Source: a virus (lineage: Duplodnaviria > Caudoviricetes). From it: DNA of 52,784 nt. Within the stretch, counting starts at the first letter, position 1. Each line of letters begins with the position of its first letter. Positions 5,004-42,562 of the stretch are shown here, piece by piece. The stretch is from IMG/VR virus record IMGVR_UViG_3300044960_000379, positions 1-52,784 of that record. The stretch is one strand, 5' to 3'. The position numbers and the translations under genes are program-made. The notes beneath the pieces were generated by a model. It saw nothing but the letters and a program-made list of their open reading frames with translations, searched no databases and was not told the origin of the DNA.

Positions 5004-5644
5004 CCTGCACTTGCGCTCCGCCGGAGGGCGGCTCTGTCCGTCTGGAAGACTTCTTCCCCAACGTGATCCCGTTCGTCATGGGCATCCCCGACGAGGTGGC
5101 TGCGCACGCCATCCGCGAGGCGGCCATCCTGCTTGCCCGGCGGGCGCAGGTGCTCCGCCGCCACGTCACCATCGAAACCCTGCCGGACGTGCCTGACTAC
5201 CAGCTTGAGTTGGAGGACGACTATGTGGTTATCGGCCTACTCGATGTGGCGTTGTTCGGTTCTCGTCTCTCGGCGCTGAACCGGCCCCCGCTGGATCGAC
5301 ACACCCCCACGCGCCCGTCCTACTACTTCGCGCCGCCGGATGACCTGCGGGTCTACCCTTCTCCGTCGCGCGAAAGTCCGTGCGGTCTGGAGGTCGTCGC
5401 CGCCGTCTCGCCCGGGCGCGACAGCTGCTTTCTGGACCGCGTGCTCTACGACCAGTTCGCCCACGTCATCGGGGACGGCGCCGCGGCCAGCATCATGCAG
5501 ATGAAAGGCGGAGACTGGTATAACCCCGCGGGGGCGGAGCGGCACTGGCGGTCGTTCGCCCTTGGGGCGGCGGATGCCAAGGCGGCGGCCAGCCGCAGCT
5601 ACTCGTCCGGGCCTACCTACATGACGACGCGGAGGTGGGTGTGA
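5000..5644 (+). CDS. Putative adaptor/tail tubular protein
   Basis: F.P.V...V.G.PD......IREAAI pattern; translationally coupled to its neighbours. Confidence 0.6.
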   Translation: MTCTCAPPEGGSVRLEDFFPNVIPFVMGIPDEVAAHAIREAAILLARRAQVLRRHVTIETLPDVPDYQLELEDDYVVIGLLDVALFGSRLSALNRPPLDRHTPTRPSYYFAPPDDLRVYPSPSRESPCGLEVVAAVSPGRDSCFLDRVLYDQFAHVIGDGAAASIMQMKGGDWYNPAGAERHWRSFALGAADAKAAASRSYSSGPTYMTTRRWV

Positions 5645-6486
5645 GGCACTACCTGTTCCAGCCCCGCCGGCCCCTCGACCCGCGCGCGCTGCAGGCGCCG
5701 CTCGCCTCGCCGGATTGCAAGGACTGCGCTCCGCCGCCGTGCAATTCGTGCGCCCCGGGCTGTGCGACTTGCCTTGACGTCGAGGACTGCAGGCCGAAAT
5801 ACATCCGCGCCAAGCACTCGATCACCAAGGACACGGCGGCGACCTGCTTCCGCCCTTCCGATTGTCGCTACACCGCGCGCGGCAGGAAGCTGGAAGAACT
5901 GGAAGCGTGGGTGCGCCCGCGCGGAACCCTCGTCTGGCGGCTTGCCTACCCGGCGTTCGACCGCGACGACGATGGCAACATCTGCTTTCGCTGGGACCAC
6001 CACCTGTTCGCGCTCGGGGCCAAGCGGCTTGAGGTCGAGTTCCGCGAATGCGGGGAGCCGTGCGGCGTGGTGGAACTGCGCATCAGGCAGGACTGCCTCA
6101 TCGACCGGAATGCTGCTACCAACGTGGAGCGGCGCGACTTCTGCCCGCCGCTGGTCGCGCCTGGGGAGATTACGAACGTGTTCGATGCCGTCGTCCAGTT
6201 CACCGGGTTTCTCGGCGCCGTGCTTGAATCTGGCGCTACCGTCCTGAAGCTCTGCCCGCCGGATCGCCAGCGGCTGTGTTCGGTCAACCTCTGCCGCCCT
6301 GTCGAGCTTGCCATTGATGACGGCGTGAACGGCGAGATCGTCCGCTTCGTCGGTTGCACCAACGGGCTGCCGATTATCGAGCGCGGGGTTGACGGCACTG
6401 TCCCCCGCCGCTTCCCCGCCGGGGCGCGGGTCAGGTTCGTCTGGACCAGCGGCAACGTGCTGGCCGCGCAGGAGGGATGCTCGTGA
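5635..6486 (+). CDS. Putative virion protein, Cys-rich
   Basis: CKDC..CNSC..CATC cluster; IERGVDGTVPRRFPAGARV resembles tail-associated modules. Start codon uncertain. Confidence 0.6.
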   Translation: MGVRHYLFQPRRPLDPRALQAPLASPDCKDCAPPPCNSCAPGCATCLDVEDCRPKYIRAKHSITKDTAATCFRPSDCRYTARGRKLEELEAWVRPRGTLVWRLAYPAFDRDDDGNICFRWDHHLFALGAKRLEVEFRECGEPCGVVELRIRQDCLIDRNAATNVERRDFCPPLVAPGEITNVFDAVVQFTGFLGAVLESGATVLKLCPPDRQRLCSVNLCRPVELAIDDGVNGEIVRFVGCTNGLPIIERGVDGTVPRRFPAGARVRFVWTSGNVLAAQEGCS

Positions 6487-13469: not shown

Positions 13470-14032
13470 TGCTTTACGGACCCTACGCTTCCTACGCCAA
13501 CGGACCTGATACCGTCGCGCCGATGCCGGAGTGGCAGGATTTGCTGCACGCGGCGCGCGTCGACATGCTCGTGAAGGACGTGCTCAAGCGGGTCGAATCA
13601 GTGGGGATGGCCGCAGCGGCGGTAGCGGTGCCCGCTACCCCCACGCCGTTCGGCGACGGAGCCGTTCAGCCGCCGTTCGCCGAGGAGCCGCTGCAGGAAG
13701 ACGCCGCAGGCGGTGCTTTCGACATGTTCGAGCCGCCGGAAGGCGGCCCTACGCTTCCCGACGGCCAGTGGAACACCGGGGCCGACATGGAGACCTATCG
13801 CATCATCGGCGCGACGCCGTTCGATGGACCGATGGAGCAGCCCATGGAGCAGTTCGCCGGCGGGCTCGATAATCTTCGCGTGACGCGCGAGGCGATGCAG
13901 CCGCTTGAGCGCGCGATCAGGCCGACGTTCGACACTTACAGCCGGTTCGGCTATCCTGACCTCAAGGCGGACCCTTACGGTAACGGCATCATCAACGCCA
14001 TCCGCCGGATGGTTCGTGGAGCGCAGGCGTGA
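13469..14032 (+). CDS. Hypothetical (probable virion) protein
   Basis: TGATG overlap upstream and GTGA overlap downstream. Confidence 0.6.
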   Translation: MLYGPYASYANGPDTVAPMPEWQDLLHAARVDMLVKDVLKRVESVGMAAAAVAVPATPTPFGDGAVQPPFAEEPLQEDAAGGAFDMFEPPEGGPTLPDGQWNTGADMETYRIIGATPFDGPMEQPMEQFAGGLDNLRVTREAMQPLERAIRPTFDTYSRFGYPDLKADPYGNGIINAIRRMVRGAQA

Positions 14033-17000
14033 GCTACGTAGTTGGCGATCTTCCGATTCCGGAAGAAGACACCCTCGACCCGTCGGAGCAGCAGCGGCTG
14101 CGGCAGCTGCGCGGGCAGCCGGAGCCGCCGCCTCCGCCGCGTGCCCAACCGCAGCCGTCCCAGCCGCAGACGCAGACAGAGCCGCTTCCGCCGCGCGCTC
14201 AACCGGAACCTCCGCAGCCGGAGCCGCTTCCGCCGCGCGCTCAACCGGAACCTCCGCAGCCGGAGCCGCCCTCGCCGCAGCCGGCGCAGCAGGACTCCGA
14301 TCCCGAAGTCGAGGTTCCCGGCTACGAAGGTCGCTGGTCGCGCGCTCGCGTGCGCCAGCTCCGGGAGCTGGAAGCGCAGCCGCCGACACCGGAGAACATC
14401 GTCGCCTACTCGCGGGCGGTCGGCGAGCGCAGCCTCGACATCCTCACGCGCGACCCGAAGGACGACACCGACACCGACAGGGCGCAGCGCCGAACCGCAG
14501 CATTCCGCCTGCAGTTCCGGCGTTGGGTGGCCGAGAACGGGCTCGAAGAAGCCTTCGCCAACGGATCGGCGCGCGATCAGGAACGAATCATCCAGCAGTG
14601 GGCGGACAGCATCCACCCGCCGACCCCGCAGACCAACCGTCGCGGCGAGCAGACCGGGCGGGCGGTTCGCAGCGCCGAATCCCGCGAGCTGACTGCGGCC
14701 CTCGTCGGCGAAGGGAGGATGCCCTACTGGACGACGTTTGTCCCGGACGAGCAGCAGGTCGACGAAGCGGTCAGGAACAGGACCGCCCGCGAGACGAGGG
14801 CCGCGCAGCAGGCCGCGCAGCAGGCCGCGCGAGCGGCGCAGGCCGAAGCCCGACAGGTGCCGGCAAACCCTCTGGCGCGAACCCCGCAGGCCGCCGCGCC
14901 GCAGGAACCGCAGGCCGGGTTCTGGACCCGCGCGAAGGACGTCGCCGTCGAAACCATCGCCGGAGTCGCGCGCGGCGCTGTCGGGCTTGGCGACTTCGTC
15001 AATCGTGGGCTGCAGCAGCTCGGCATCGGTGCCGACCAGGCCGACGTCGAGGGTATCTACGCGCTGCTGGACGCCGCGAAGGGGCAGTTCCAGTCGGAGG
15101 CTTTCCAGCGCGAGTCGCGAGCGTTCTCCGAAGCCCTGCGCAAGGTCGACGGCAGCGTCATTGTCTCCATGGGCCGGGCGCTCGCGCGCGGCGACACCGA
15201 GGGCGCCCGGCAGCTCGCTCAGCAGTCCGGCATCGGCGAAGCGTGGGACCGCGCCGGCACCACCGTCGTGCTGGCGACTATCCTCGGCGGTGCCGCCGAG
15301 TTCGTCGCGCCGTTCAGCGCCGGCGCGCGAGTGGCGCGCGCCGGGGCCAATGTCCTTGCGCGGGGTGCGCCGCGCGTGGCGACAGCTGCGCCGGCGGCAG
15401 GCGGCATCGCCGCCGCTACCGCTGCTCCGACAGCGACGCAGATGACGGAAGTTGGAGCCGAAGTCCGCCGCCAGACCGGGGACAACGCGCGCGCCGACGC
15501 AGCCTCGGCCATGGCGTCCGCCGGCGGTGCCATCGCGGCGCTCGGCAACGTTCTCGGCGCGACCATCGGTCCCGGCGGGCAGGTCGCCCGCGCTCTTGGA
15601 ATGCGCGGGGCCAGTGCTGTCGCCGGAGAGGCCGCCAGCGCACCCGCCCGGGCCGCCATTGCCGGTGCCGCTGGCGCGGCGCAGGGCGGCCTTGCCACCG
15701 CAGGCCAGAACGTCAACCGCGCCGAGGCCGGCGTCGAGCAGGAGAACGTCACCGGGCCGGCGCTTCTTGGCGGCGTGCTCGGCGGTGTGCTTGGTGCGTT
15801 CCCCACGCGCGGGCGCAGCGAGGCCCCGCCAGCGCCGCCGGTGCCGGCGGCACCTGGCACTGCGCAGGCCGGCAACGGCGTCATCCGGGGCGGCGTCGCC
15901 AAGGCCGAGGCTCAGCAGTCGGCCCCGCAGCCAGTCCTCGCGCTCCCGCCACCCTCCGGCAACGCGCCCGAATCTCTGCGGCGCACGCCGGAGGGCGGGC
16001 TGGTCGACCGCCGCGCCGCTGTTCCCGGAGGGGTGGTGCCGGAGGATGCCGGCGTGCGCGAGCGCAACGCGCCGTTCTCGTGGAACGACCGGCGACAGGC
16101 GGACCCGAACACCATCTTCGTGCCGCCGACGCGCGCCCTGCCCGCCCCCGACCCCGACAACCCGTCGCCGAGGCCGCAGGTCGACATCATCGAGCGCAAC
16201 GCGCCGTTTAACCGCAACGACCCGCGACAGGATTTCCCCCGCGAGCCGGGGGTCATCTACGGCGAGCCGCCGCCCCGGAGGCCGGCACTGCCGGCGCCTG
16301 AGCCCGGGCAGGAGCCGTTCGTGGCGCGCGAGGCGCGGCCCCGCGAAAGTGTCGTCGAGCAGAACGCCCCGCTCAATCCGGCGGACCCGCGACAAACGGA
16401 CCCGAACACCATCTATCTGCCGCGCTACTACGGCTCGGACTTCACCGAAGTTCCTCCCCTTCGTCGGCGGCTCGGCGAGATGCCGCCGGAACCGCCGCCT
16501 GCGGCTCCGCGCGGGCGCGAGGTGCAGCCCGCCGAGCAGATTGTGGCTGACGCCATGTCGCTGCCGCGCAGCATCCTCACGCCCGAGGAACGACAGACTC
16601 TCGGAGTCGACCGGCCGCGCGTGCTCACGCCGGACGGCATCCTCGACGTCAGCGGCGACACGCCGAAGCTCGTGCGGCCGAACACGCGCGAGTTCATCAC
16701 CGCCAACACCGAAGGACGGCTTCCGCCGGCCGGCGTCAGCCCCGAGGTGGCCGCCCGCATCGTCGAGCAGGCGCGCATCCGCCGGCAGGTGGAGCTGGCG
16801 CGAGACGCCTTCGTGGCGCAGCAGCAGGCACGCGGCGTGCCGCGCGATCAAGCGTGGCAGAACCTCGCCCGCGCCGAGCAGGACGGCACGTTCCGGCGCT
16901 TCATGGAGCAGTTCTACAGCCGCAAGGGCGTCCGCCCGGCGGCTTTCGTCGACACGCCCACTGCCGCCGCCGTAGTGGGCGAAATCGACGGCCTTGCCAC

Positions 17001-20000
17001 GCGCGTCGGCGCCGCCGTCGAAGTCTACGACGGCGTCAGGGCCATGCCGATCGAATACCGGCAGGCGTTCGCGGACGGCCAGACCAAGGCAGTCACGTTC
17101 ACCGATCAGGACGGCGTGCGCCGCGTAGTGGTGGACCGCTCCATGCACGCCGACGGCACGGACCTGCGCAAGACGCTGCAGCACGAGATCGTCGGGCACG
17201 TCGCGCTGCCGGAAATCCTCGGAGCTACGGCCTACAACAACCTCATGATGCAGGTGTCCCGCCTGCAGGCCGAGAACAGCGCCGTCGCGCAGCTCTACCG
17301 GGAAGTGGCGAAGCAGTATCCCGGAGCCGACCCCCGCACGCAGGCGGCGGAGGTGCTGGCGCGCGTCGTCGAGGACGGTTCGCTGCCGAAGCGCAGCGGC
17401 GTCCAGAAGCTGCGCGATTCGTTCCTCGCCGCCATGCGGCAGGCGGGGTTCAGGGGCCAGAAGGACGGCCTCATGACCGGCGATCAGCTGCAGTCGCTGC
17501 TCGCCACCGTGCGCGATTCGGTCAACAACCCGGAAGCGGCGTGGAGGCTCAAGGAAGCCACCGCGCCGCTCGGCAGCGCCGGCCTCGGGCAGCAGTTCGA
17601 GCGCACGGTCACCGGAACCCGGCAGACGCTCTGGACGCGCGCTGCGGCCTTCCTGTGGAACGAGAACGCGCCGATCATCGAGGCGGCGCGCACGCTGCGC
17701 GACGTGCGCGGCGTGCAGTCCGGGGTCGTCGACCAGCTGTTCCAGGCCCCCAACAGGATCAACACCACGTTCGACAGGTTCGCCGTCCGGCACATCGAGC
17801 CGATCCGCAAGACCATGCAGGAAGTGGCCGACGCCACGGGCAAGTCACTCGACCAGGTCAGCGTCATCCTCGACCAGATTGCCGCCGCCAAGCACGGCAT
17901 CGAGCGCAACGAAGCCACGTGGTTGCTGTTCGCGAAGGTCGCCGACAGGGTCGAGGGCGAGCGCATCGCGCTGTTCCGCGACTTCCGCAACGGCAAGATC
18001 GACGGCAAGACGCTCCGCGACAACCTGCGCGCCATCGTCACCGACGACACCGCTCGGACGCCGCGCGACGAATGGCGCGGCTACGGTGCCACCGATAGCG
18101 AAATCAGGCAGCTGCAGCGGGCGCTCGCCGACGACCCGGCGGCGCAGATGGTCGAGGCGCGGGTGTGGCCCATGCTGCGAGCCTTCGTCGACGACCTCAC
18201 TGACCATCAGCTCAAGTCGGGCATCCTGACCCGCGCCGAGGTCGACCTCTACGGGTTCGCCAACTATGTCCCGGCGCGCGGCGGCGCGGCGGACGCCCCG
18301 CCGCTGGTCATCAACGACATCGCCGGCAACTATGTCACCAGCCACACGGCGCAGGGACGTGGCGGTCAGGGCATCCCCGAGCGCGTGCTCGGCGAGCTGC
18401 TGGACATGTCGGTGGACACGGCGCGCGCGTTCGGCAACCGCGAGTTCTTCCGCGCACTTGGCGAGGCCGTCGCGCTGGACGTCGCCAACACGGCGGCCGG
18501 CCGCAAGCCGCTCTACGGGCGCGAGGTCGAGTCGTCGAACGTCATCTCGACGGCGGCGGACGACAAGATTCGGTTCAACATCCCGAAGGGCGTCCGCCCG
18601 GAAGACTACCAGAACGTCTTCCGCTACATCGACGCTAACGGCGACCTGCGCTACCTCGCGATCACCGACCCGACGCTTGCCGCCGCCCTGCGCGGCGTGG
18701 CGGAGGGGCCGCCGCGCGCATCGAAGATCGCGGCGGCGGCGCAATCCGTGACCGGCCTGCAGGGCCGCCTGCTGACCTCCCTCAACCCCTGGTTCTGGGC
18801 GACACAGATTCAGCGCGACCTGATCGGCAACACGCTGCGCATGCTGACCGACTACCAGGCGTTCGGCATGACGGCGAAGGACGTGCCGACCATGACCAGT
18901 GGCTTCCTCGCGCGGTTCTCGCGCGAGATGCTTCCGCTGTCGGACACGTGGCGCTACGCTTCCCTGAACGCGGATCGCGGCGCGCAGCTGCGCCTCATCG
19001 AGGAATGGAAGCAGTCGAACGACCCGAAGCTGCGCGAGCGGGCCGAGTTCCTTGAGGCCGGCGCGATCCGCTTCTCGTCGCAGTTCTCCGCCACCAGCGA
19101 GTTTCGCGGCACGCCGCTGGCCAATGTCCTCATGGGGACGGATAACCTCGCCCGGCGCGGTTACGACCGGCTGTTCGGCGCCGATGGCGTGCTCAAGACG
19201 CTCGCCGAGCGCATGTCCACGGCGCAGGAAGCACTTGAGCTTGGGCACCGCTGGGCTTTCTACCAGACCCTCCGCCGGCACGGAATGGACCCGGAGCGTG
19301 CCCGGTCCGAGACGATCCAGCTGACCAACTTCAACCAGCGATCCAAGGTCAGCCGCGCACTGAACCCGTGGTTCGCGTTCTCGCACACCATCACCGCCGG
19401 TGCCGACCGCGCTTTCAACAAGGGTCTCTGGCGCAACGGCGAGATTCCGTGGCGGCGCGTCGAGCTGCCCGATGGAACCGTGCAGCGCACCGTTTCGCTT
19501 GCGGACGTGGCGAAGAATCTCAACTACCTCCGCCTCGGCGTCGTCGCCGCCATGGGCTACGCCGCCTCCGCCGCCACGATGAGCCTTCTCGGTGAGCAGA
19601 AGGACAAGAACGGCGTTTCGCTGGCGGACAAGCTGTCGCCGGAGTCGCGGATGCGGTCGCTGTTCTTCCCCGGCACCAAGCCGGGGCAGGTGTTCCGCAT
19701 CGCCATGCCGGACACCGAGGCCACGCTCGGTCTCGCCCTCGGCGTCGCGATCCACGGGCTCGAAACCGGCACCATGAATCAGGCCGAGGCGCGCGTCGGG
19801 CTGCTCAACGTCGCGCAGCGCATCTTCGGTCCGGCGCTCAAGCCGCGCAACGACTTCCCGGACGGCGAGCGCGGCAACCCCATCACGAGCATGACCCTCG
19901 GCGCGGTCCCCACCGTGCTTCGGCCCGTCGTCGAAGGGGCGCTCAACTACAACTTCGCCGGCAACCCGCTGGACAGGCGCGGTCAGGTGGTCAACGCACC

Positions 20001-20778
20001 GGGCGGGCAGATTCGACTCGCCGGAGTCGAGGCTACGCGGGACACGACCAACCCCTTCTGGCGGCGGTTCGCCGAGGCGGTGCGCGACGCGACCGGCGGG
20101 CCGGGACGCGGTGCGGACGTCAGCGGCGACGTCTACCGCAACATCATCACGACCTATCTCGGCGCCCCTGCGAGGGTCTGGGACGGCGTTGCACAGGCCG
20201 AGCACCAGGCCCGCCGGGACGGCAAGGCGAACGAGTTCAACCCCGTCGAGAAGATCATCCGCGACCTGTTCATCAAGGAAGAAAACTCGTTCAAGGGATA
20301 CTATTTCCGCGAGCACGAGCAGGCCAAGGCTCCGCTCGAATCCATGCGGCGCGCCTACTACGCCGCCGTGCAGGCCGACCGCGACAGCGGCGACGCGCGG
20401 ATGGTCCGCACCCCCGACTCTCGTGGGCGGATGCGCATGGCGTGGAGCGTCGGGCCGCGCCAGCGGGCGTTCCTTGAGGCAAACCCGGTCATGCGGGACT
20501 ACGAGGATTTCCTCCGCGCCCGCGCGTCCAACGACAGGCGCGAGACTGCGTCCGCCGGGGCGTCGCCCTACCAGCAGTCGAGGACCGCGCGCGAGTCCGG
20601 CGATCCTGACCGCATCCGCGAAATGCAGGAGCGGAACGAGGACCGGCTCGCCGCCGAGATTCGACTGTTCAAGGGCCTCTGGCAGGCACACGCCGAGTGG
20701 CAGGCGCAGGGGGCTAATCCCGACCGCTGGTCGGCGATCAGGGATCGCTTTCTGCCACCGCAGGCGAGAACACCTTGA
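14029..20778 (+). CDS. Large internal virion/ejection polyvalent protein (HExxxH metallopeptidase-like segment; LPD38-like C-terminus)
   Basis: 2249 aa, last gene of the late operon; LQHEIVGH...AAEVLAR motif; T.NF....LNPWFAF and LRPVVE..LNYNFAGNP motifs. Confidence 0.75.
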   Translation: MSYVVGDLPIPEEDTLDPSEQQRLRQLRGQPEPPPPPRAQPQPSQPQTQTEPLPPRAQPEPPQPEPLPPRAQPEPPQPEPPSPQPAQQDSDPEVEVPGYEGRWSRARVRQLRELEAQPPTPENIVAYSRAVGERSLDILTRDPKDDTDTDRAQRRTAAFRLQFRRWVAENGLEEAFANGSARDQERIIQQWADSIHPPTPQTNRRGEQTGRAVRSAESRELTAALVGEGRMPYWTTFVPDEQQVDEAVRNRTARETRAAQQAAQQAARAAQAEARQVPANPLARTPQAAAPQEPQAGFWTRAKDVAVETIAGVARGAVGLGDFVNRGLQQLGIGADQADVEGIYALLDAAKGQFQSEAFQRESRAFSEALRKVDGSVIVSMGRALARGDTEGARQLAQQSGIGEAWDRAGTTVVLATILGGAAEFVAPFSAGARVARAGANVLARGAPRVATAAPAAGGIAAATAAPTATQMTEVGAEVRRQTGDNARADAASAMASAGGAIAALGNVLGATIGPGGQVARALGMRGASAVAGEAASAPARAAIAGAAGAAQGGLATAGQNVNRAEAGVEQENVTGPALLGGVLGGVLGAFPTRGRSEAPPAPPVPAAPGTAQAGNGVIRGGVAKAEAQQSAPQPVLALPPPSGNAPESLRRTPEGGLVDRRAAVPGGVVPEDAGVRERNAPFSWNDRRQADPNTIFVPPTRALPAPDPDNPSPRPQVDIIERNAPFNRNDPRQDFPREPGVIYGEPPPRRPALPAPEPGQEPFVAREARPRESVVEQNAPLNPADPRQTDPNTIYLPRYYGSDFTEVPPLRRRLGEMPPEPPPAAPRGREVQPAEQIVADAMSLPRSILTPEERQTLGVDRPRVLTPDGILDVSGDTPKLVRPNTREFITANTEGRLPPAGVSPEVAARIVEQARIRRQVELARDAFVAQQQARGVPRDQAWQNLARAEQDGTFRRFMEQFYSRKGVRPAAFVDTPTAAAVVGEIDGLATRVGAAVEVYDGVRAMPIEYRQAFADGQTKAVTFTDQDGVRRVVVDRSMHADGTDLRKTLQHEIVGHVALPEILGATAYNNLMMQVSRLQAENSAVAQLYREVAKQYPGADPRTQAAEVLARVVEDGSLPKRSGVQKLRDSFLAAMRQAGFRGQKDGLMTGDQLQSLLATVRDSVNNPEAAWRLKEATAPLGSAGLGQQFERTVTGTRQTLWTRAAAFLWNENAPIIEAARTLRDVRGVQSGVVDQLFQAPNRINTTFDRFAVRHIEPIRKTMQEVADATGKSLDQVSVILDQIAAAKHGIERNEATWLLFAKVADRVEGERIALFRDFRNGKIDGKTLRDNLRAIVTDDTARTPRDEWRGYGATDSEIRQLQRALADDPAAQMVEARVWPMLRAFVDDLTDHQLKSGILTRAEVDLYGFANYVPARGGAADAPPLVINDIAGNYVTSHTAQGRGGQGIPERVLGELLDMSVDTARAFGNREFFRALGEAVALDVANTAAGRKPLYGREVESSNVISTAADDKIRFNIPKGVRPEDYQNVFRYIDANGDLRYLAITDPTLAAALRGVAEGPPRASKIAAAAQSVTGLQGRLLTSLNPWFWATQIQRDLIGNTLRMLTDYQAFGMTAKDVPTMTSGFLARFSREMLPLSDTWRYASLNADRGAQLRLIEEWKQSNDPKLRERAEFLEAGAIRFSSQFSATSEFRGTPLANVLMGTDNLARRGYDRLFGADGVLKTLAERMSTAQEALELGHRWAFYQTLRRHGMDPERARSETIQLTNFNQRSKVSRALNPWFAFSHTITAGADRAFNKGLWRNGEIPWRRVELPDGTVQRTVSLADVAKNLNYLRLGVVAAMGYAASAATMSLLGEQKDKNGVSLADKLSPESRMRSLFFPGTKPGQVFRIAMPDTEATLGLALGVAIHGLETGTMNQAEARVGLLNVAQRIFGPALKPRNDFPDGERGNPITSMTLGAVPTVLRPVVEGALNYNFAGNPLDRRGQVVNAPGGQIRLAGVEATRDTTNPFWRRFAEAVRDATGGPGRGADVSGDVYRNIITTYLGAPARVWDGVAQAEHQARRDGKANEFNPVEKIIRDLFIKEENSFKGYYFREHEQAKAPLESMRRAYYAAVQADRDSGDARMVRTPDSRGRMRMAWSVGPRQRAFLEANPVMRDYEDFLRARASNDRRETASAGASPYQQSRTARESGDPDRIREMQERNEDRLAAEIRLFKGLWQAHAEWQAQGANPDRWSAIRDRFLPPQARTP

Positions 20779-35461: not shown

Positions 35462-36631
35462 TCAATCTCCAATTCTCACGGAGCGGCCCCAAGGGGCGGT
35501 GATTTCGGTGGTGAACGCCCAGACCACAGGGTAGCCGGGTGCCCGCTGCGGGAACGTGCCGTAGCCGTCGGTGAAGTAGACGAGCGCAGACGGGCGGGCG
35601 ACATGCGCGCGGACCCAATCGAACGGCGGCCGGAAGTCGGTCCCGCCGCCGCCGCACGGCGACAGGACAAGGTCGGAAGGCCGGTCGAACGTCTCAACCT
35701 TGTTGACGTCCGCATCGCAGTAGACGACGTGGATTTTCTCCGGCCGCGTCTGCGCGCAGAGTTGGCGAATGTAGGACTCGAAGCGCCCGAGCACGCCGTC
35801 GTCGATGGACCCGCTGGTGTCCACGACGAGGACAAACTCGCCAGCCGGCTCGCGCCTCCTGCCCGGCATGAGCGTCGGCAACTGGCTGCGCCGCGACGGG
35901 CGCGCCCAGCTGCGGTCGTCCGTCAGGCGGGCATGGGCGGACAGGACCACATGCGCCAGCACGCGCCGCCAGTCGACCTTCGGCGCTGCCACCGCCTGCA
36001 CGACGCGCTCGACCATGGCGGAGACATTCCCGACCGTCTTGGCGGCCGCAGCGGCGGAGATGATGTCCGCCGCCACCTGCGGAGCGGCGGACTCGTCGGA
36101 GTCCAGAATCGCGTCGAAGCCGCCGGAAACGTCGCCGCTGCCGGAGCCGCCCTGCGGGGCGGCAGCCACCAGCCGATCATAGATCGCCTCGGCGCTGTCG
36201 TCGGTGCCGACGCGAGGATCGAACAGGTAGGCGAACGACCGCATCGGCGCGCGGCCGGACAGCACGTCGATCAGGCCGCCGATGTGCATGGGCGGGCCGT
36301 CCTCGGCCGGGAAGTCGAACCTGAACCCCCGGCGCATCAACTCGGCGTTGATGACGAAATCGGCGGCCATGTTCCACAGGTTCGGCCAGCGCGACCCGCG
36401 CCGGATGTTGTGCAGCGTCGCCTTGTGCCACGCCTCATGGGCGAGCACGGTGGCGCGGGTCGCGTCGTCCAGCCTGCCCATGAAGGTCGGGTTGTAGAGC
36501 ACGACCTTGACGCAGTCGGTCGCTGCCGTCTGCTGCGACTCGTCAGGAGTCAGCGTCATCGTGGAAAGGACGGACGCCTCGAAAGGCGCCCCTCCGATGA
36601 GAATGGCCAGAGCCTTGCGAAGATCGGCCAT
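35462..36631 (-). CDS. DUF2201-type metallopeptidase-vWA domain protein
   Basis: TAATD, LAHEAWH, WNMAAD..IN; vWA MIDAS DTSGS, GGGGTDF, FTDG. Confidence 0.88.
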   Translation of the reverse strand: MADLRKALAILIGGAPFEASVLSTMTLTPDESQQTAATDCVKVVLYNPTFMGRLDDATRATVLAHEAWHKATLHNIRRGSRWPNLWNMAADFVINAELMRRGFRFDFPAEDGPPMHIGGLIDVLSGRAPMRSFAYLFDPRVGTDDSAEAIYDRLVAAAPQGGSGSGDVSGGFDAILDSDESAAPQVAADIISAAAAAKTVGNVSAMVERVVQAVAAPKVDWRRVLAHVVLSAHARLTDDRSWARPSRRSQLPTLMPGRRREPAGEFVLVVDTSGSIDDGVLGRFESYIRQLCAQTRPEKIHVVYCDADVNKVETFDRPSDLVLSPCGGGGTDFRPPFDWVRAHVARPSALVYFTDGYGTFPQRAPGYPVVWAFTTEITAPWGRSVRIGD

Positions 36632-36634
36632 CGG

Positions 36635-37711
36635 TCACTCCTTGCGCAGGAAGTTGCCGGCGGACACGAAGTCGCCGTTGTTGTGGATGTGCCGAAGCAA
36701 CTCGGCATCGGCGATCAGCGCGGACCCGTTGGGCTCGGTCTTGACGCGCGCCATCAGGCGCTTGACGAACAGGCCGGACACCTCGGGGTGGTGACGCTCG
36801 ACCCACCTGAACCCGTTGCGGACCTGCGCGGCGTTCTTGGCGGTGCTCGCCAGCGCGAACGCCTGAAGCAGCGCCATGGCGAGGTTGTCATGCGCGCCGA
36901 AGCCATCCGGGCCGGCCAGCAGCTTCTCGGACGGGTGCAGCTTGGACATGCAGTCCAGCACATGGGCAACGCGCGCCGCCGCCTCGTCGCCCACCACGGC
37001 CGCCAGCATGACCATCCGCATGGCCGGCGACGAGGCGAACTTCAGGACGTCGCTCGCCCGCTTCCACGCGCGCGGCGTCGGCGAGCGAGGCTGCTCGGGG
37101 TCGAACTTGGCGTGCAGGAACTCCTGCGAAACGCGCAGCGCGGCGATGATTTCCGGCGACACGTCGTTGGCGAAAGCATAGTCGGTCCACTCATCGAAAG
37201 TCGGACCGGAGAAGCTGACCACCGCCATGCGGTTGGTCAGCGGACGCGGCAACTCCTCAACCATGGCCCCGGAGCCGGGCGGGTTGCACGCGGCAATCAC
37301 GCGCGTTCCGGGCGGGAACGGGAAGCCACCGCAGCGCCGGTCGAGGATCACTTCGTAGAGCGCCGAGAGAACACCGCGCGAAGCGAGGTTCACCTCGTCG
37401 AGAAACAGCATCACCGGCTTGCCGGCGGACTCGTGGAGTCTGGTCGCCTCAGCAACCAGATCGGGCTGGCAGCGCACGGCCGTGCGCGTGGCCACGTCGC
37501 CGACCGGGATGCCGCCGAGGTCTTCCGGCAGCATCTGACTGGCGCGCCGGTCGAGCAGCGCATAGCCCGCCGCCTCGGCGACGGAGCGAACAATCTCGCT
37601 CTTTCCGATCCCCGGCTTGCCCTCGACCAGCAGCGGCAGGTCAAGCGCCACGGACATGTGGATGGACTCCCGGAGTCCGTCGACCGAAACGGTATTCATC
37701 GTGATAGCCAT
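36635..37711 (-). CDS. MoxR-like AAA+ ATPase
   Basis: GKPGIGKS, LFLDE, AACN, PLTNR and PTPRAW motifs. Confidence 0.9.
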   Translation of the reverse strand: MAITMNTVSVDGLRESIHMSVALDLPLLVEGKPGIGKSEIVRSVAEAAGYALLDRRASQMLPEDLGGIPVGDVATRTAVRCQPDLVAEATRLHESAGKPVMLFLDEVNLASRGVLSALYEVILDRRCGGFPFPPGTRVIAACNPPGSGAMVEELPRPLTNRMAVVSFSGPTFDEWTDYAFANDVSPEIIAALRVSQEFLHAKFDPEQPRSPTPRAWKRASDVLKFASSPAMRMVMLAAVVGDEAAARVAHVLDCMSKLHPSEKLLAGPDGFGAHDNLAMALLQAFALASTAKNAAQVRNGFRWVERHHPEVSGLFVKRLMARVKTEPNGSALIADAELLRHIHNNGDFVSAGNFLRKE

Positions 37712-37790: not shown

Positions 37791-38069
37791 TTATTTATGA
37801 CTGTCGGCGGCTCGGCGAACGCCGGCGCAGCCCCGGCACCGGGCGCAGTCGAGGCAGTCGAAGCAGTCCCGGCACTGGACGCACCCGACGCAGCTCACGC
37901 AATCGGTGCAGCCGTAGCAGTCGACGCAGTTGAAGCAGTCGACGCAGCCGACGCAGTTCTTCAGCGTCGCCAGTGCCGCCAGCGCGAGCGTTTTCGCGCC
38001 CCACATGGCCAGCGACGCCCGATTGCCGTTCTCGTCGACGACCCATCCGGCGGGTGGGTCTACGGCCAT
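37791..38069 (-). CDS. Cys-x-x repeat protein, paralogue 5 (15 triplets)
   Basis: Head WVVDENGNRAS..WG...ALAAL..L followed by (Cxx)15; GAAGGAG RBS. Confidence 0.85.
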   Translation of the reverse strand: MAVDPPAGWVVDENGNRASLAMWGAKTLALAALATLKNCVGCVDCFNCVDCYGCTDCVSCVGCVQCRDCFDCLDCARCRGCAGVRRAADSHK

Positions 38070-38500
38070 GGACAGACTCCTTCGGTCCGGTCGGCGGCGA
38101 TGTTCCGCGCGCCGGTGTCACGCGAACAGCCTGCGCAGCAGGCACAGTTCTGGCAGTCGACGCAGCGGATACAGTCGGTGCAATCCGAGCATCGGCCGCA
38201 GCGGATGCAGCCGGAGCAGCCGGCGCAACCAGAGCAGCGGTGACAGCCGGTGCAATGGTAGCAGTCGTTGCACCAAGCGCAACCGGAGCAGCCGAAGCAC
38301 CGCAGGCATGCCGTGCTTTCGGTGCAGACCACGCACTCCTGGCAGTCGACGCAGTTGAAGCAGTCGGTGCAGCCGAAGCAGCCCTGCAGACTGTCAAGGG
38401 CGGCGCGCGCCGCCTCGACCGACCCCCACCGGGCGACCGACGCCCGATTGCCGTTCGCGTCGGTGATCCATTCGACGGCCATGTTTATGGTTCCTTTCAT
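38060..38500 (-). CDS. Cys-x-x repeat protein, paralogue 4 (28 triplets)
   Basis: Head WITDANGNRASVARWGSVEAARAALDSL, Cxx run with one Ser substitution, tail DRTEGVCP. Confidence 0.85.
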   Translation of the reverse strand: MKGTINMAVEWITDANGNRASVARWGSVEAARAALDSLQGCFGCTDCFNCVDCQECVVCTESTACLRCFGCSGCAWCNDCYHCTGCHRCSGCAGCSGCIRCGRCSDCTDCIRCVDCQNCACCAGCSRDTGARNIAADRTEGVCPWP

Positions 38501-38952
38501 GGGCGGACTCCTTCGAGTCGGTTGGCGTCGTTAAGGGCTTCGCAGCTGGCGCACTCGTCGCAGCGCGAGCAACGCAGGCACCCGTCGCAGTCGGTGCAGT
38601 CCGAGCAGTCGGTGCATCGCCGGCAGCCGGAGCAGTCGGTGCAGTCCGAGCAGTCGGTGCAGTCGACACAGCCGGAGCAGTCGGCGCACCACGAGCAGTC
38701 GGCGCAGTGACGACAGCCGGAGCAGTCGGCGCACCACGAGCAGTCGGCGCAGTGACGACAGCCGGAGCAGTCGGCGCACCACGAGCAGTCGGCGCAGTGA
38801 CGACAGCCCGAGCAGCCCGAGCAGTCGGCACAGTCGGTGCAGCCGGAGCAGCCCTGCAGGCTGTCGAGGACGGCGCGCGCCGCCTCGACCGACCCCCACC
38901 GGGCGACCGACGCCCGGTTGCCGTTCGCGTCAGTGATCCATTTCGTGGTCAT
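38497..38952 (-). CDS. Cys-x-x repeat protein, paralogue 3 (35 triplets)
   Basis: ATG 38952 with ATGA overlap and GAAGGAG RBS; same head; tail NRLEGVRP. Confidence 0.85.
   Translation of the reverse strand: MTTKWITDANGNRASVARWGSVEAARAVLDSLQGCSGCTDCADCSGCSGCRHCADCSWCADCSGCRHCADCSWCADCSGCRHCADCSWCADCSGCVDCTDCSDCTDCSGCRRCTDCSDCTDCDGCLRCSRCDECASCEALNDANRLEGVRP
38671..38805. repeat. Perfect 45-bp tandem repeat x3 inside paralogue 3
   Basis: GCCGGAGCAGTCGGCGCACCACGAGCAGTCGGCGCAGTGACGACA at 38671, 38716 and 38761. Confidence 0.95.
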
Positions 38953-39323
38953 GGGCGGACTCCTTCGAGTCGGTTGGCCTTGGTCACGTTCCGGCAGTCG
39001 GCGCAGCCGGAGCAGTCGACGCACCGGACGCAGCCCGAGCAGCCGGAGCAGTCGGCGCAGTAACGACAGCCGGCGCAGTCGGAGCAGCCCCGGCAGCCGA
39101 CGCACCGGACACAGTCGACGCAGTTGGAGCAGTCGACGCACCGGACGCAGCCCGAGCAGCCGGAGCAGTCGAAGCAACCCGAGCAGTCCCGCAAGGTGGC
39201 GAGGGCGGCGCGCGCCGCCTCGACGGACCCCCATCGGTCGACAGATGCGTGGTTGCCGTTCGCGTCGGTGACCCACGCGATGGTCATGGACGTGGCCAAG
39301 GACGCAGTCATGGACGCGATCAT
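38949..39323 (-). CDS. Cys-x-x repeat protein, paralogue 2 (22 triplets)
   Basis: ATG 39323 after GAAGGAG; head WVTDANGNHASVDRWGSVEAARAAL; tail NRLEGVRP. Confidence 0.85.
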   Translation of the reverse strand: MIASMTASLATSMTIAWVTDANGNHASVDRWGSVEAARAALATLRDCSGCFDCSGCSGCVRCVDCSNCVDCVRCVGCRGCSDCAGCRYCADCSGCSGCVRCVDCSGCADCRNVTKANRLEGVRP

Positions 39324-39325
39324 GG

Positions 39326-39766
39326 TCAGGCTCCTTCGAGTCGGTTGGCGTTGGTCACGTTCCGGCAGTCCGAGCAGCCGGAGCAGCCGGAGCAGTCGAC
39401 ACAGTCGAGGCAGTCGGTGCAGCCCCGGCAGCTGGCGCACCGGACGCAGCCGGAGCAGCCATAGCAACCGGCGCAGTCCGAGCAGTCCGCGCAGCCGAAG
39501 CAGCCCCGGCAGCCGGAGCAGCTGGCGCACCGGACGCAGCCGGAGCAGTCGACGCAGCCGGAGCAGTCGGCGCAACTGCGGCAGTCGAGGCAGTCCGAGC
39601 AGTCGGTGCATCGCCGGCAGCCGGAGCAGTCGGCGCAGTTGGTGCAGTCGACGCAGTCACGGCAGCCTCGCAGGGAGGCAAGGGCGGCGCGCGCCGCCTC
39701 GGCCGATCCCCAGCGGTCGACCGACGCCCGGTTGCCGTTCGCGTCGGTGATCCATTTCGTGGTCAT
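39326..39766 (-). CDS. Cys-x-x repeat protein, paralogue 1 (34 triplets)
   Basis: GAGGAGG RBS and ATGA overlap; same head; tail NRLEGA. Confidence 0.85.
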   Translation of the reverse strand: MTTKWITDANGNRASVDRWGSAEAARAALASLRGCRDCVDCTNCADCSGCRRCTDCSDCLDCRSCADCSGCVDCSGCVRCASCSGCRGCFGCADCSDCAGCYGCSGCVRCASCRGCTDCLDCVDCSGCSGCSDCRNVTNANRLEGA

Positions 39767-41538
39767 GGGCAGACCTCCTCGCGCCGGATCAGATGCGCCT
39801 GCACGGACGCCGGCGCCTTGCCCCGTCCGGCGACGTGCAGCAGCGGCACGGTCGGCGCGATCAGGATCGTCAGCCCCGCGTATCGGCTGCCGCCGAACCT
39901 CACCTGCAGCGACCGCGCAAGGGCGACGGCCGTCGGCACGCCGAACCAGCCGATCATCGTCGCCAGCGCCGCTTCGCCGGGCGCGACGGGGCCGGCCAGC
40001 GCCGCCTCGACCGCACGCACGTCGCCCTTCGACGCACGCAAGGCGCCGCGCAGCCGATCCGCCCCCGGGACGTGCAGCCCCACCAGCCCGCGCCCGGCGA
40101 AGCGCGGACCGCGCCGCGCCTGATCCAGATCGCCGGAAAGCACCGCCACGGTCAGCGGGGCGGGCGGAACGGGCGGAGCGTGCGGATCGGAAGCATCGGA
40201 GGCATCGGAGGCATCGGTGTCGAGCAGCAGCGCCGTCCGGACGAACGTCTCCGTGGCCGCAGGGTCGAGCAGCAGCACTTCGCCGGACCGGACGTCAGGC
40301 ACCAGAGACAGTCCGCAGTCCACCGCCGGGGCAGCCCCGCTCGCCGAACGACAGAACACGCGCGCCACGTCGCCCCTGCGCGTCCCGTCCGCCGTCGGCG
40401 AGCGCACCACCGACGACAGAAGCGCCGGATCGCCGCCGATCATGCCAGCGACAGCCTCGCGCGCCCGGTGCCAGACAGTCGCCGAGGACACAAGCGAGTC
40501 GCCTCCCGAGGAGGCCGAGGACACAAGCGAGCCGTGCTCCGGGACCGCCGCCGTCGCAGCCGCCGCCACCAGCACATGCCCGCGCCGGATGGAGCCGTCC
40601 GGCATGGTGTGCGAGCAGGCCGGCAGCGCCGTGGCGAACACGTCGGACTCCACGAGTCCGACAGCGCCGCTCATGTCGCGCATCGTCTCGACGGCGACGC
40701 GAACGCGCTCGACCCGATCCGCGAGCGCCTGCGGATCGTCATCCCAGACAACTCGCACCATCCCGCCCTGCCGGAACCCATCCACATCGCACGGACGGGC
40801 GCGGAGCGGCGAGATGACGCCGCACCAGCCCATGGCGAGCGCGCCATGCGCGGAACCGTCAGGCACGAACACCGTGCTGGACCCGTCAGGATCGGAGGAG
40901 TCGTATTCCATCCCGGCCGCCACCAGCGCACGGATCGGCACGTAGGGACGCGACGACAGGGACGCCGGCGCGCCAGCCTCCCGCAACCGGACCACGGGGC
41001 AGAACACCGGCACCGTCGTTGTCGAGTGAAACACGCTATGCTCCGGCAAGGGCAAGGGCACGAACACGGGCGTGCCGTCACGCGGTCCGACCGCCAGCGG
41101 CGGCAGGACAGACTCCGGGAGTCCGAGCGTGATGGTGGTAGTGCCGTCTAGCTTCTGCCGGGCCCACAGACCAGGAACCCACCTGCTCAGCAGCGCGTTG
41201 AGCCGGCGCGCCGTGCTCGCCGAGCCATACCCGTCAACCGCGAAACCGACCACACGGGCATCGGCAATACACTCCGGAAGCGGCGGGATCACGCCGACCG
41301 GCCGCCCCGGCATCGGCCGGAACCCCTTCATCCAGCGGCGGAGCGAACGCTGATCCGCCACGTCGAGCCAGCGCGGACCGGACAGGCGAACGTAGAAGAT
41401 GTTCCTGGAGAAATGCGACCACACGATCAGGTTCCGGTCGCAGTAGAAGGTCACGGTGGTGCTGCTGCCGCAGGACCGCGCGTAGATGAGCTGCGGCTCG
41501 GGCTGGGCCGGACGGCGAGGACGGTGAAGGTTGGGCAT
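39763..41538 (-). CDS. Large early hypothetical protein
   Basis: First gene after the consensus promoter; GGAG before ATG 41538 (alternative start 41604); coupled to paralogue 1. No motif recognised. Confidence 0.65.
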   Translation of the reverse strand: MPNLHRPRRPAQPEPQLIYARSCGSSTTVTFYCDRNLIVWSHFSRNIFYVRLSGPRWLDVADQRSLRRWMKGFRPMPGRPVGVIPPLPECIADARVVGFAVDGYGSASTARRLNALLSRWVPGLWARQKLDGTTTITLGLPESVLPPLAVGPRDGTPVFVPLPLPEHSVFHSTTTVPVFCPVVRLREAGAPASLSSRPYVPIRALVAAGMEYDSSDPDGSSTVFVPDGSAHGALAMGWCGVISPLRARPCDVDGFRQGGMVRVVWDDDPQALADRVERVRVAVETMRDMSGAVGLVESDVFATALPACSHTMPDGSIRRGHVLVAAAATAAVPEHGSLVSSASSGGDSLVSSATVWHRAREAVAGMIGGDPALLSSVVRSPTADGTRRGDVARVFCRSASGAAPAVDCGLSLVPDVRSGEVLLLDPAATETFVRTALLLDTDASDASDASDPHAPPVPPAPLTVAVLSGDLDQARRGPRFAGRGLVGLHVPGADRLRGALRASKGDVRAVEAALAGPVAPGEAALATMIGWFGVPTAVALARSLQVRFGGSRYAGLTILIAPTVPLLHVAGRGKAPASVQAHLIRREEVCP

Positions 41539-41622
41539 GAGCAGACTCCGGGGAGTCGGCCGGGGCGACTGCCACGCGCCGTCCGGCCTGCGTGAATAAG
41601 GCATAACTGTGGCAGTATTTGA

Positions 41623-41651
41623 ATTATAGCATCATATACATTGGGTGTCAA
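41623..41651 (-). promoter_or_regulatory. Perfect-consensus sigma70 promoter
   Basis: Minus strand reads TTGACA-N17-TATAAT with an extended -10 TG. Confidence 0.9.
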
Positions 41652-42498
41652 TAGCGGAGTTATGTGGGAAAAGGGGCTTATATACAGTCGTGAGCGGCTT
41701 TCCCACAATTGGTTTGTTGTCCGTTTTAGGGAAGCAATCCTAGAGTGAGCACCCAATTGTGGCAGACGGCGGCTCAAAGCAGGTAAGCCCAGTCAACCTC
41801 GGCGACCCCAGCGTTGTGTGGAGCCAGTGATTATTTTTCTCGGCCCTCTCGGAGCCGAATGTGTCAAAATTAAGGAATGTGGGATTACGGCGACTGCGGC
41901 ACATAGCGGCGATAAGTAGGCTCAGTAGGGAGACTTGGCTTGTTTTGCCGCCAGGATGCGGAAAACCCAGATGTATACGTAGCAAATGGCGGAGGCGGCA
42001 CTGGGCATACGTAACGGAATTATATATGCCGAGCGGCGTAAGAGGGATTGCGGCGGGGCTATATGCGTATACGCGCGGCGTGTTTTGCGGGGTGGAGGGC
42101 GCGGAGAGGGAAGTCCAGAGGGTGTGTGGGGGGTCGTGGTATTGCTGTCTCAGTGAAGGAAATGGAGGTATAAAAATGCGAATGTGGCGGAGGTGTGGCG
42201 TTGCCACAATTCGCCGCCGCTGACGAGACCCTACCTTCCAGTTATATGATAAGATTCACTAGTAAATAATGTCTTTGCTGTATATATCCAAGTCCATACG
42301 CATTTCTATGGACAGATAGACCGCCCCCAAAGTGCCGCTTACGGACAATTTCCATTCGCCTACTCTTTATAAGTCAGTTTATTGGTATGACGGCACGAAG
42401 AATGCCTAGCCAAGTTTCCCGAAATAAAATACTGGGTATACATACTCATTTTCGCCACAATCGCCAGTGTAGTTTCTCGCTCCCGGCCAACAGACCGC

Positions 42499-42526
42499 TT
42501 GACAGCGCCGCTCGGCATGCTACCGT
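42499..42526 (+). promoter_or_regulatory. Candidate sigma70 promoter
   Basis: TTGACA-N16-TACCGT upstream of an AGGAGG RBS. Confidence 0.55.
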
Positions 42527-42562
42527 CCGGTTCCGCGTCGCGATCAGACAGGAGGACAGCCC

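Follow-up and report, generated by a model that had tools for sequence, protein, structure and literature searches.

What do five adjacent phage genes encode when each begins with the same short head and continues as a long run of Cys-x-x (Cxx) triplets? The question is raised by positions 37791-39766 of IMGVR_UViG_3300044960_000379, an IMG/VR virus record that is linear, 52,784 bp long and estimated to be 74% complete. The whole record is referred to here as the window. An earlier note on this DNA had described five consecutive paralogous genes on the minus strand, overlapping or nearly abutting, and the coordinates found here agree with that description. The data presented below demonstrate the five genes (g1-g5), the family to which they belong, its modular architecture and its amplification in this phage. 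Our best guess for their role is that the products would serve as early, dosage-amplified, non-enzymatic binders or as a thiol/metal sink.

The five-gene array

The minus strand encodes the whole array. g1 (39326-39766, 146 amino acids (aa)) consists of a head, 34 Cxx triplets and the tail ..CRNVTNANRLEGA, in which GAAGGAG at 39331-39337 is the ribosome binding site (RBS) of g2. g2 (38949-39323, 124 aa) starts with the ATG at 39323, 7 nt downstream of that GAAGGAG. It has a 12-aa N-terminal extension before the head, then 22 triplets and the tail ..NRLEGVRP, whose GAAGGAG at 38960-38966 is the RBS of g3. g3 (38497-38952, 151 aa) has 35 triplets and the same tail, ..NRLEGVRP, with GAAGGAG at 38508-38514 as the RBS of g4. 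g4 (38060-38500, 146 aa) has 28 triplets, interrupted by one non-Cys triplet (STA), and ends in ..GARNIAADRTEGVCPWP, with GAAGGAG at 38077-38083 as the RBS of g5. g5 (37791-38069, 92 aa) has the most divergent head, 15 triplets and a short tail without an RBS. The triplet counts given in the earlier note for g1, g2, g3 and g5 were the same. For g4, where the earlier note had 28, the count is 28 or 29, the 29th being a stray CPW in the tail, which puts the total at 134-135.

The tails share NRLEG in g1-g3 and DRTEG in g4, and each GAAGGAG lies 7 nt before the next ATG. The proposal that a tail shared by four genes doubles as an RBS is thus correct for g1-g4, and g5 lacks this tail. Upstream of g1 is the first ORF (open reading frame) of the operon, listed as 613 aa (39763..41604, minus strand; true start uncertain), and GAGGAGG at 39774-39780 in its last codons is the RBS of g1. 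Stop and start codons overlap as ATGA at the 613-aa ORF/g1, g2/g3 and g3/g4 junctions. g4 and g5 overlap by 10 nt and a gap of 2 nt separates g1 from g2. Because tail codons supply the next RBS, and stops and starts overlap or abut, the block including the 613-aa ORF is translationally coupled. A promoter, P1 (41623..41651, minus strand), with the sequence TTGACA-17-(TG)TATAAT, lies in a low-GC intergenic stretch. It matches the sigma-70 consensus at 12/12 positions, which bears out the perfect-consensus promoter reported earlier at this site.

The 28-aa W..L head is identical between paralogues at 15-27/28 residues and 51-79/84 bases. The g5 head shares 15-17/28 residues with the other four. 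The earlier note had recognized the conserved 28-aa head, but its consensus string was off by one residue near 'A.AAL'; as given it matched 0/5 heads, and with a one-position correction it matches 4/5. Cys accounts for 16-23% of the residues in g1-g5 compared with 1.1% (152/13,881) across the 37 other window ORFs. The top value among these others (6.7%) belongs to a 283-aa ORF at 5635-6486 on the plus strand.

The x positions were said to vary freely, and the body was called hypervariable. The first statement is wrong. Of 128 triplets, 79 have S, V or A at x1 and 89 (70%) have D or G at x2, and triplets from ~100 homologues have the same bias. Most x2 residues are D, G, N or R, which are typical for turns and surfaces. 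The supposed hypervariability amounts to a change in repeat number plus drift with no sign of targeted diversification. A ~1% divergent strain (metagenome run X11) has, among its joints, two by which the frame is preserved, one of 36 nt in g2 and one of net 171 nt in g3. The g3 body contains 5.1 copies of a 45-nt unit with 92% identity (TRF). Because of these in-frame indels and the g3 repeat, the variation is attributed to slippage or unequal recombination plus drift; targeted hypermutation was not seen. Aromatic residues (W, F and Y) occur in the repeats of g3-g5, and some relatives are Y-rich. Neither a signal peptide nor a membrane segment was found in g1-g5. The net charge is 0 to -11 per protein and known DNA mimics are far more acidic; a DNA-mimic reading is kept merely as a sub-case.

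All six reading frames are open across the repeats. Only the Cys frame bears the codon signature of the genome, with a GC content at third codon positions of 0.82-0.90, as in other window genes. Cys is encoded by TGC 123 times and by TGT 13 times. The Cys frame is also preserved in AT-rich Campylobacter, Flavobacterium and Vibrio phages. The hidden Markov model of PHROG 15341, a family of unknown function, matches g1-g5 with E values of 3.8e-25, 1.5e-13, 4.1e-20, 6.1e-17 and 4.1e-16, respectively.

The stretch is present in 20 public metagenome runs, which are labeled as hot-spring, microbial-mat, unspecified or factory metagenomes. Logan contigs of four runs, including X1, X9, X10 and X11, were aligned to the array region. 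Short-read contigs break inside the array in 4/4 runs and its interior is fragmented into pieces of ~75-260 bp, as expected from short-read graphs. The earlier note had named read data as the place where an assembly artefact would be revealed. All five gene junctions are bridged by contigs of independent runs, four in X1 with 0 mismatches and g3/g2 in X9, X10 and X11. The five genes are genuine, and their array is no artefact. In X9 and X10, one contig each joins 38663 to 39626, which leads from the g3 body to the g1 body with a net skip of 958 nt. This join would yield an in-frame g1/g3 chimera without g2 and may be a recombinant subpopulation or a graph artefact; it was not used as evidence.

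The window has a tailed-phage-like gene set, including a terminase, a portal-like protein, an internal virion protein and an endolysin. The minus-strand replication arm encodes a family A DNA polymerase, an SNF2 helicase, a primase, a PD-(D/E)XK exonuclease and an HNH endonuclease. The Cxx genes are in the first operon of this early/replication arm and not among the virion genes. Three promoter-like sites were found in the 5.7 kb scanned, versus 0.5 +/- 0.7 in shuffles. One of these, P2 (37759..37787, minus strand; TTGACA-17-(TG)TATGAT, 11/12), begins 4 nt past the g5 stop and marks where the Cxx unit gives way to the ATPase operon. A weaker promoter-like site is at 42275-42246, within a divergent intergenic region (41600-42560, GC 0.59-0.61) that separates the minus-strand early operon from plus-strand genes. 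Searches for tRNA genes and Rfam families found none in the window, this region included.

Downstream of the array are a MoxR-like AAA+ ATPase (36635-37711, minus strand; phrog_1297, PF07728) and a putative metallopeptidase of the DUF2201 type that also has a VWA-like domain (35462-36631, minus strand). PHROGs labels the latter 'HNH endonuclease' (phrog_1314), which conflicts with its Pfam domains. The 613-aa ORF had no family match in Pfam, NCBIfam and PHROG searches. In the virion-gene arm, a 2,249-aa ORF (14029-20778, plus strand) had no PHROG match at E<=1e-5.

Relatives of g1-g5 in other genomes

A search with g1 matched 97 unnamed proteins of similar length plus 20 longer ones. The head-only profile search proposed in the earlier note was carried out with a profile of 47 sequences and 35 columns. 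It generated 265 clusters (50% identity) at E<=1e-3, 97 of them at E<=1e-10, and no well-characterized family was matched in Pfam or NCBIfam. At least four Cxx triplets are present in 100 of the 145 newly listed head proteins, and many of the others are truncated fragments. In a few proteins the head is fused to unrelated C-terminal domains with zero Cxx triplets; the head is therefore an autonomous module. g1-g5 fit the head pattern W-[IVL]-x-[DG]-x-N-G-N-[RK]-[AC]-S..[WF]-G..E.A...L..L..C followed by in-register Cxx. In an alignment of g1-g5 with 15 outside members, N12, G20, A25, L32 and C35 (g1 numbering) are invariant. The head was suspected from its sequence pattern to be related to DUF1508/YegP (PF07411). 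This candidate was rejected, as hhalign of the head profile against 7 DUF1508 domains gave a probability of 1.4% and there was no Pfam hit.

The family was found in 61 viral loci, and one cyanobacterium as well as named Alpha- and Gammaproteobacteria have prophage-like copies. Among phages, those of Proteobacteria, Bacteroidota and Campylobacterota have members, as do gut and soil phages. The repeat number among relatives ranges from 4 to 58 triplets. The head motif was found in 54/61 related viral loci, in one copy each and in more than one copy in none, so the five-gene layout is atypical for the family. Three paralogues, of which two lie side by side, are present in Campylobacter phage CP21.

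In most relatives, the long forms, the repeats are followed by a C-terminal domain. Type A, a helical domain with the invariant motif H-x-C-x3-H-C-R-x-G-W, is present in 47/97 homologues. Types B, C and D have the motif '..I-x-x-G-C..' in common, and type B is known from one phage record, where it is annotated as hypothetical. Of the 54 loci with a head motif, 30 have a type A domain, 9 have other forms and 15 are cut off within the repeat by a contig end (L020, L022-L024, L029, L030, L033, L042, L043, L045, L046, L049, L053, L056 and L070). A tblastn search of the window with 14 long-form C-terminal domains produced only repeat noise. Because relatives are normally single-copy and usually have a C-terminal domain that the window lacks, the five-gene short-form array represents an accessory gene, solitary as a rule, that has been amplified specifically in this lineage.

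The earlier note knew of no characterized phage system with this layout, and none has emerged: PHROG 15341 is listed with unknown function, and Pfam and NCBIfam have no family for it. In Pfam, g1-g4 match no family at E<=1 and g5 yields noise only. The ESM Atlas contains matches solely to unnamed, mostly viral clusters. No published description of the family was found in the literature covered, which did not extend to subscription journals. In GenBank, relatives appear as 'hypothetical', as 'insect antifreeze protein' (in Vibrio phage 1.238 and in Campylobacter phage CPt10) or as a wrong-frame ORF (Flavobacterium phage FL-1). In FL-1 (KY421186.2) the deposited coding sequence over the repeat (L002 4912-5256) is in an Ala-Pro-Ile/Val frame. 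The Cxx frame is a 234-aa ORF (L002 4800-5504) with a different head type, and the type A domain is in another frame (5392-5616). From this arrangement the FL-1 repeat gene is frameshifted or mis-sequenced, and it has been mis-annotated.

Other architectures contain Cxx runs. Protein P0257 (287 aa) has two head plus Cxx units per chain and then a hydrophobic C-terminal segment. P0100 (971 aa), from an AT-rich organism, has at least four 'DENGN-x-NC' plus Cxx units that alternate with He_PIG Ig-like domains. Patescibacteria-type proteins of 300-580 aa (P0104, P0107, P0111, P0112, P0115 and P0118) have repeated short Cxx runs ending in 'C-F-G-C-V-G-L..K.Y.I.N..Y..EEY'. They were found at loci L085, L089 and L109, with five in a row at L089, and had no family match.

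Another group consists of actinobacterial chromosomal proteins from Mycobacterium, Pseudonocardia, Solirubrobacterales and other Actinomycetota, with a long (G-S-x-A-x-A)n repeat, ~10 Cxx triplets and a conserved 'CSGLR..G.R.V' end. They were found at loci L094-L150, for example L104 7743-8168 (Mycobacterium aurum) and L113 7824-8270. No Pfam or NCBIfam match was above cut-off, and 38 of these loci revealed local synteny only. Like g1-g4, these proteins combine a Cxx run with a hydrophobic end coil of four triplets. They differ in that they lack the phage-type head, are chromosomal, and have a Gly/Ala/Ser/Val repeat of period 3/6 preceding the Cxx run.

Fold of the Cxx body

We propose that the five co-transcribed, coupled early genes produce capped, Cys-cored rods that are dosage-amplified and non-enzymatic. 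The chance that this proposal is right in full is put somewhat below even. The array would have arisen within the phage lineage by tandem duplication of one unit, composed of the RBS, head, (Cxx)n and tail, which is a short form of the widespread PHROG 15341 accessory family. The head would be a small autonomous beta-beta-alpha module of ~33 aa. The body would be a tripeptide-repeat beta-solenoid in which each coil probably has four triplets (12 residues), like the coils of the Tenebrio antifreeze beta-helix. The Cys at every third position would point into the core, and x1 (S/V/A/T/R) and x2 (D/G/R/N) would form the surface. A Cys-less hydrophobic coil (V/L-xx-A-xx-L-xx-V/A) would close the rod. 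Because there is no signal peptide, metal ligation is more plausible than disulfide bonding for the 15-35 Cys of each chain, and in the reducing cytoplasm the Cys column would most likely be held by bound metal.

AlphaFold2 predicts the head as a hairpin plus helix with a predicted local distance difference test score (pLDDT) of ~90 (residues 1-40). The long-form type A C-terminal domain (~100 aa) has a pLDDT of ~95. For the body, three lines of evidence favor a capped beta-solenoid with a Cys core by analogy.

The first is a sequence match. In phmmer searches the Tenebrio antifreeze protein TmAFP (1EZG) was matched with E values of 3.4e-4 (g1) and 8.8e-5 (relative P0001), and it is the sole solved structure matched by sequence. 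In the printed part of the alignment its Cys residues, which are six apart, land on every second Cys of g1. In the TmAFP motif, C, S, C and A occupy four inward-pointing positions, one per third residue. Placed in this way, the small residues S and A would meet the remaining g1 Cys, so that inward positions would recur with period 3 and each coil would comprise four triplets.

The second line is the end of the run. In g1-g3 the period-3 register persists for four triplets past the last Cys with V/L, A, L and V/A in the Cys positions. The actinobacterial Cxx proteins have a matching end coil with the pattern L, A/V, L/A, V. This pattern resembles a single 12-residue coil, free of Cys, at the closing end, and its conservation means that the tail is kept as protein and not just as an RBS.

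The third line is the slot that the run occupies in sister architectures. Type D ends a Rheinheimera phage Barba25A protein with a Pentapeptide body (PF00805, E 1.2e-28). Type C ends a Chryseobacterium phage MA9V-2 protein with a Hexapep body (PF00132, 40.9 bits) and a Podoviridae ctn9Y15 protein with a YdcK body (PF18836, 57.5 bits). It also ends a Mannheimia phage 587AP2 protein, in which the solenoid-repeat match of 25.8 bits is below cut-off. Type D relatives were found by tblastn on phage records; a protein search with the type D domain matched the query alone. Because the C-terminal domains are shared, the Cxx run takes the place of recognized beta-solenoids. The pentapeptide gene of Barba25A (MK719740.1) is split between frames inside the repeats (L162 ORFs 2137-2583 and 2411-2695), and the second half alone is annotated.

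These phage solenoid proteins (the Barba25A gp043 region, MA9V-2 gp224 and 587AP2 gp43) consist of an N-terminal region, beta-solenoid repeats and a small 'IGC / CGCF-GT-EF' C-terminal domain, of the types (D and C) that also end Cxx relatives of g1-g5. Like members of the Cxx family they are small, come from single accessory genes and vary in repeat number. They differ in having penta- or hexapeptide repeats rather than the tripeptide Cxx, and g1-g5 lack the C-terminal domain. The Pentapeptide family PF00805, with A(D/N)LXX repeats, did not match g1-g5, and the sole link to it is the C-terminal domain of relatives. The analogy informs the fold but not the role.

The resemblance to TmAFP has limits. 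TmAFP forms a right-handed beta-helix whose 12-residue coils, TCTxSxxCxxAx, are extensively disulfide-bonded (PDB 1EZG, PF02420; motif as given in PMC4204002). Cys recurs every 3 residues in the window proteins and every 6 in TmAFP. The window proteins have no T-C-T ice-binding face and no signal peptide, would reside in the bacterial cytoplasm and have a separate conserved head. The resemblance is regarded as a structural analogy, and common descent is unlikely.

Several results weigh against the capped Cys-cored rods. The AlphaFold2 model of the repeat body has a pLDDT <50. Foldseek found no fold match in the PDB at E<=0.001 with the g1 or long-form model, and VIA-align found none for the long-form model among 48,161 chains (best Z 4.5). 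In BFVD there was one match, to an unnamed protein of 74 aa that is 63% identical across the C-terminal domain. The match to 1EZG is dominated by composition (bias 35.5 vs score 24.9), and the insect antifreeze family PF02420 gave no match at E<=1. The C-terminal domains used in the slot argument are absent from the window's own five proteins. Across 115 repeat runs (2,008 triplets), no 6- or 12-residue super-period was found in the x residues, which have weak depletion at lags 2, 5 and 8. Nor do the repeat indels and TRF periods come as multiples of four triplets. The commonest true neighbor cluster is present in just 8/61 loci, and no partner or target was identified beside the 61 viral loci. 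The earlier suggestion of a beta-solenoid with Cys inside gains indirect support from the 1EZG match, the end coil and the C-terminal domain slot, and rests on analogy.

With regard to action, the capped rods would work by mass rather than as enzymes and would be produced early, at high level and in stoichiometric amounts. The consensus promoter, strong RBSs, coupling and five copies suggest a need for dosage. The head would be a specific contact module. The rod would be a length-variable scaffold, a decoy surface made of x1 and x2, or a thiol/metal reservoir directed against a host component early in infection. A bolder version can be formulated, which we consider doubtful. Here (Cxx)n would be a new tripeptide-repeat beta-solenoid with four thiolates per 12-residue coil, forming stacked tetrathiolate metal sites or an Fe-S-like chain ~4.8 Å apart. 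Such a genetically length-tunable metal-thiolate wire or sponge, deployed here in five copies, would seize or buffer host metal or redox chemistry early, with the head docking to a host target.

Competing explanations

The alternative that survives best is that the thiols are the function, as in metallothioneins. The proteins would bind Zn, Cu, Fe/S, Cd or As stoichiometrically with no need for a defined solenoid surface. The effect would be to detoxify the cell, to deprive host metalloproteins of metal or to supply metalloenzymes of phage or host, and amplification would raise the capacity, as amplification of CUP1 does in yeast. This explanation keeps substantial weight, and we give it a minority chance that has to be taken seriously. 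Metallothioneins resemble g1-g5 in that they are extremely Cys-rich, contain much Ser, Gly and Asp, are elastic in length and undergo gene amplification. The absence of a signal peptide and the five-fold amplification behind a consensus promoter are in agreement with a sink. The 4-58 triplets of relatives also fit, since capacity can scale in this way and precise geometry cannot. The hot-spring and microbial-mat labels of runs with the phage point in the same direction, as does the invariant H-x-C-x3-H-C of the long-form C-terminal domain. So does the next operon, with its MoxR-type AAA+ ATPase and VWA/metallopeptidase protein, as MoxR-type ATPase/VWA pairs act in metal-center assembly in other systems.

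However, the strict period 3, constrained x1 and x2, conserved folded head and hydrophobic end coil exceed the needs of a simple chelator. Metallothioneins mix CxC, CC and CxxC, whereas g1-g5 have one strict period, aromatic residues and conserved folded caps. Aromatic residues are common in the repeats of g3-g5 and of relatives, and classical metallothioneins are not known to have any. No metallothionein family was matched in Pfam or NCBIfam. The family is also present in gut and soil phages, and the MoxR/VWA adjacency was found in 0/61 related loci. More generally, the genes next to the array (the 613-aa ORF, the AAA ATPase, DUF2201 and two unknowns) had no relative across the 61 related viral loci when 37 window proteins were compared.

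A second alternative is an extracellular or virion-associated beta-helix stapled by disulfides, a true analogue of the Tenebrio antifreeze protein that folds after lysis or export. In its favor, the disulfide-rich TmAFP is the only solved structure found by sequence, and relative P0257 ends in a hydrophobic, membrane-like segment. We regard it as unlikely. g1-g5 lack a signal peptide or membrane segment, the genes are in the early/replication arm, and 7-17 disulfides per chain would be implausible in the bacterial cytoplasm.

A third alternative is that g1-g5 are precursors of peptides that are made on ribosomes and modified post-translationally (RiPPs), with the head as leader and (Cxx)n as a core that is turned into thiazoles or thioether cross-links. 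We see only a slim chance of this. The layout matches that of heterocycloanthracin/sonorensin precursors (TIGR03601), which have a conserved N-terminal region followed by a Cys-Xaa-Xaa run of strain-variable length (PMC2674419), and g1-g5 are tandem paralogues. TIGR03601 matched weakly (E 0.14 and 0.77), but the 10.4 bits of g2 and 12.8 bits of g5 compare with a cut-off of 35, and g1, g3 and g4 had no match. YcaO cyclodehydratase (PF02624) and radical SAM (PF04055) gave no match at E<=1 in six frames of the window, a record estimated to be 74% complete, and a host enzyme is possible for the YcaO step. The absence of a neighboring enzyme is not decisive, because heterocycloanthracin/sonorensin precursors are encoded far from their maturation operon according to PMC2674419. 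A radical SAM gene is located two genes from one Campylobacter phage copy, but no modifying enzyme recurs near the 61 related loci. The proteins are 92-151 aa here and up to ~310 aa in relatives. Their folded head, and the 100-aa C-terminal domain folded with confidence in most relatives, are unlike a leader-core peptide, and the repeat region is interchangeable with beta-solenoid repeats.

The weakest alternative, that the array is an assembly artefact or non-coding repeat DNA open in all frames by chance, is very improbable and largely refuted, since the six open frames, the contig breaks in 4/4 runs, the 15/61 related viral contigs that end inside the repeat and the GenBank annotation of FL-1 in another frame are outweighed by the codon-position GC, the conserved heads, tails and RBSs, the PHROG matches, homologues in genomes of very different GC, the independent contigs across the five junctions and the two between-strain indels that keep the reading frame.

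By analogy, the g1-g5 family is rated as a repeat protein of the solenoid type, in which the tripeptide repeat, all-Cys, is of an undescribed kind. The family is widespread, with at least 265 head clusters at 50% identity, and no member was found with a name, structure or paper. If the Cys-cored solenoid is true, it would be an undescribed repeat class beside the pentapeptide and hexapeptide solenoids that occupy the same slot. The repeats break short-read assemblies, as in the 15/61 related contigs, which leaves many database members truncated, and mislead annotation, as in FL-1; database counts of the family are therefore too low. Five genes amplified behind a perfect promoter would amount to a natural over-expression construct and point to a stoichiometric role early in infection.

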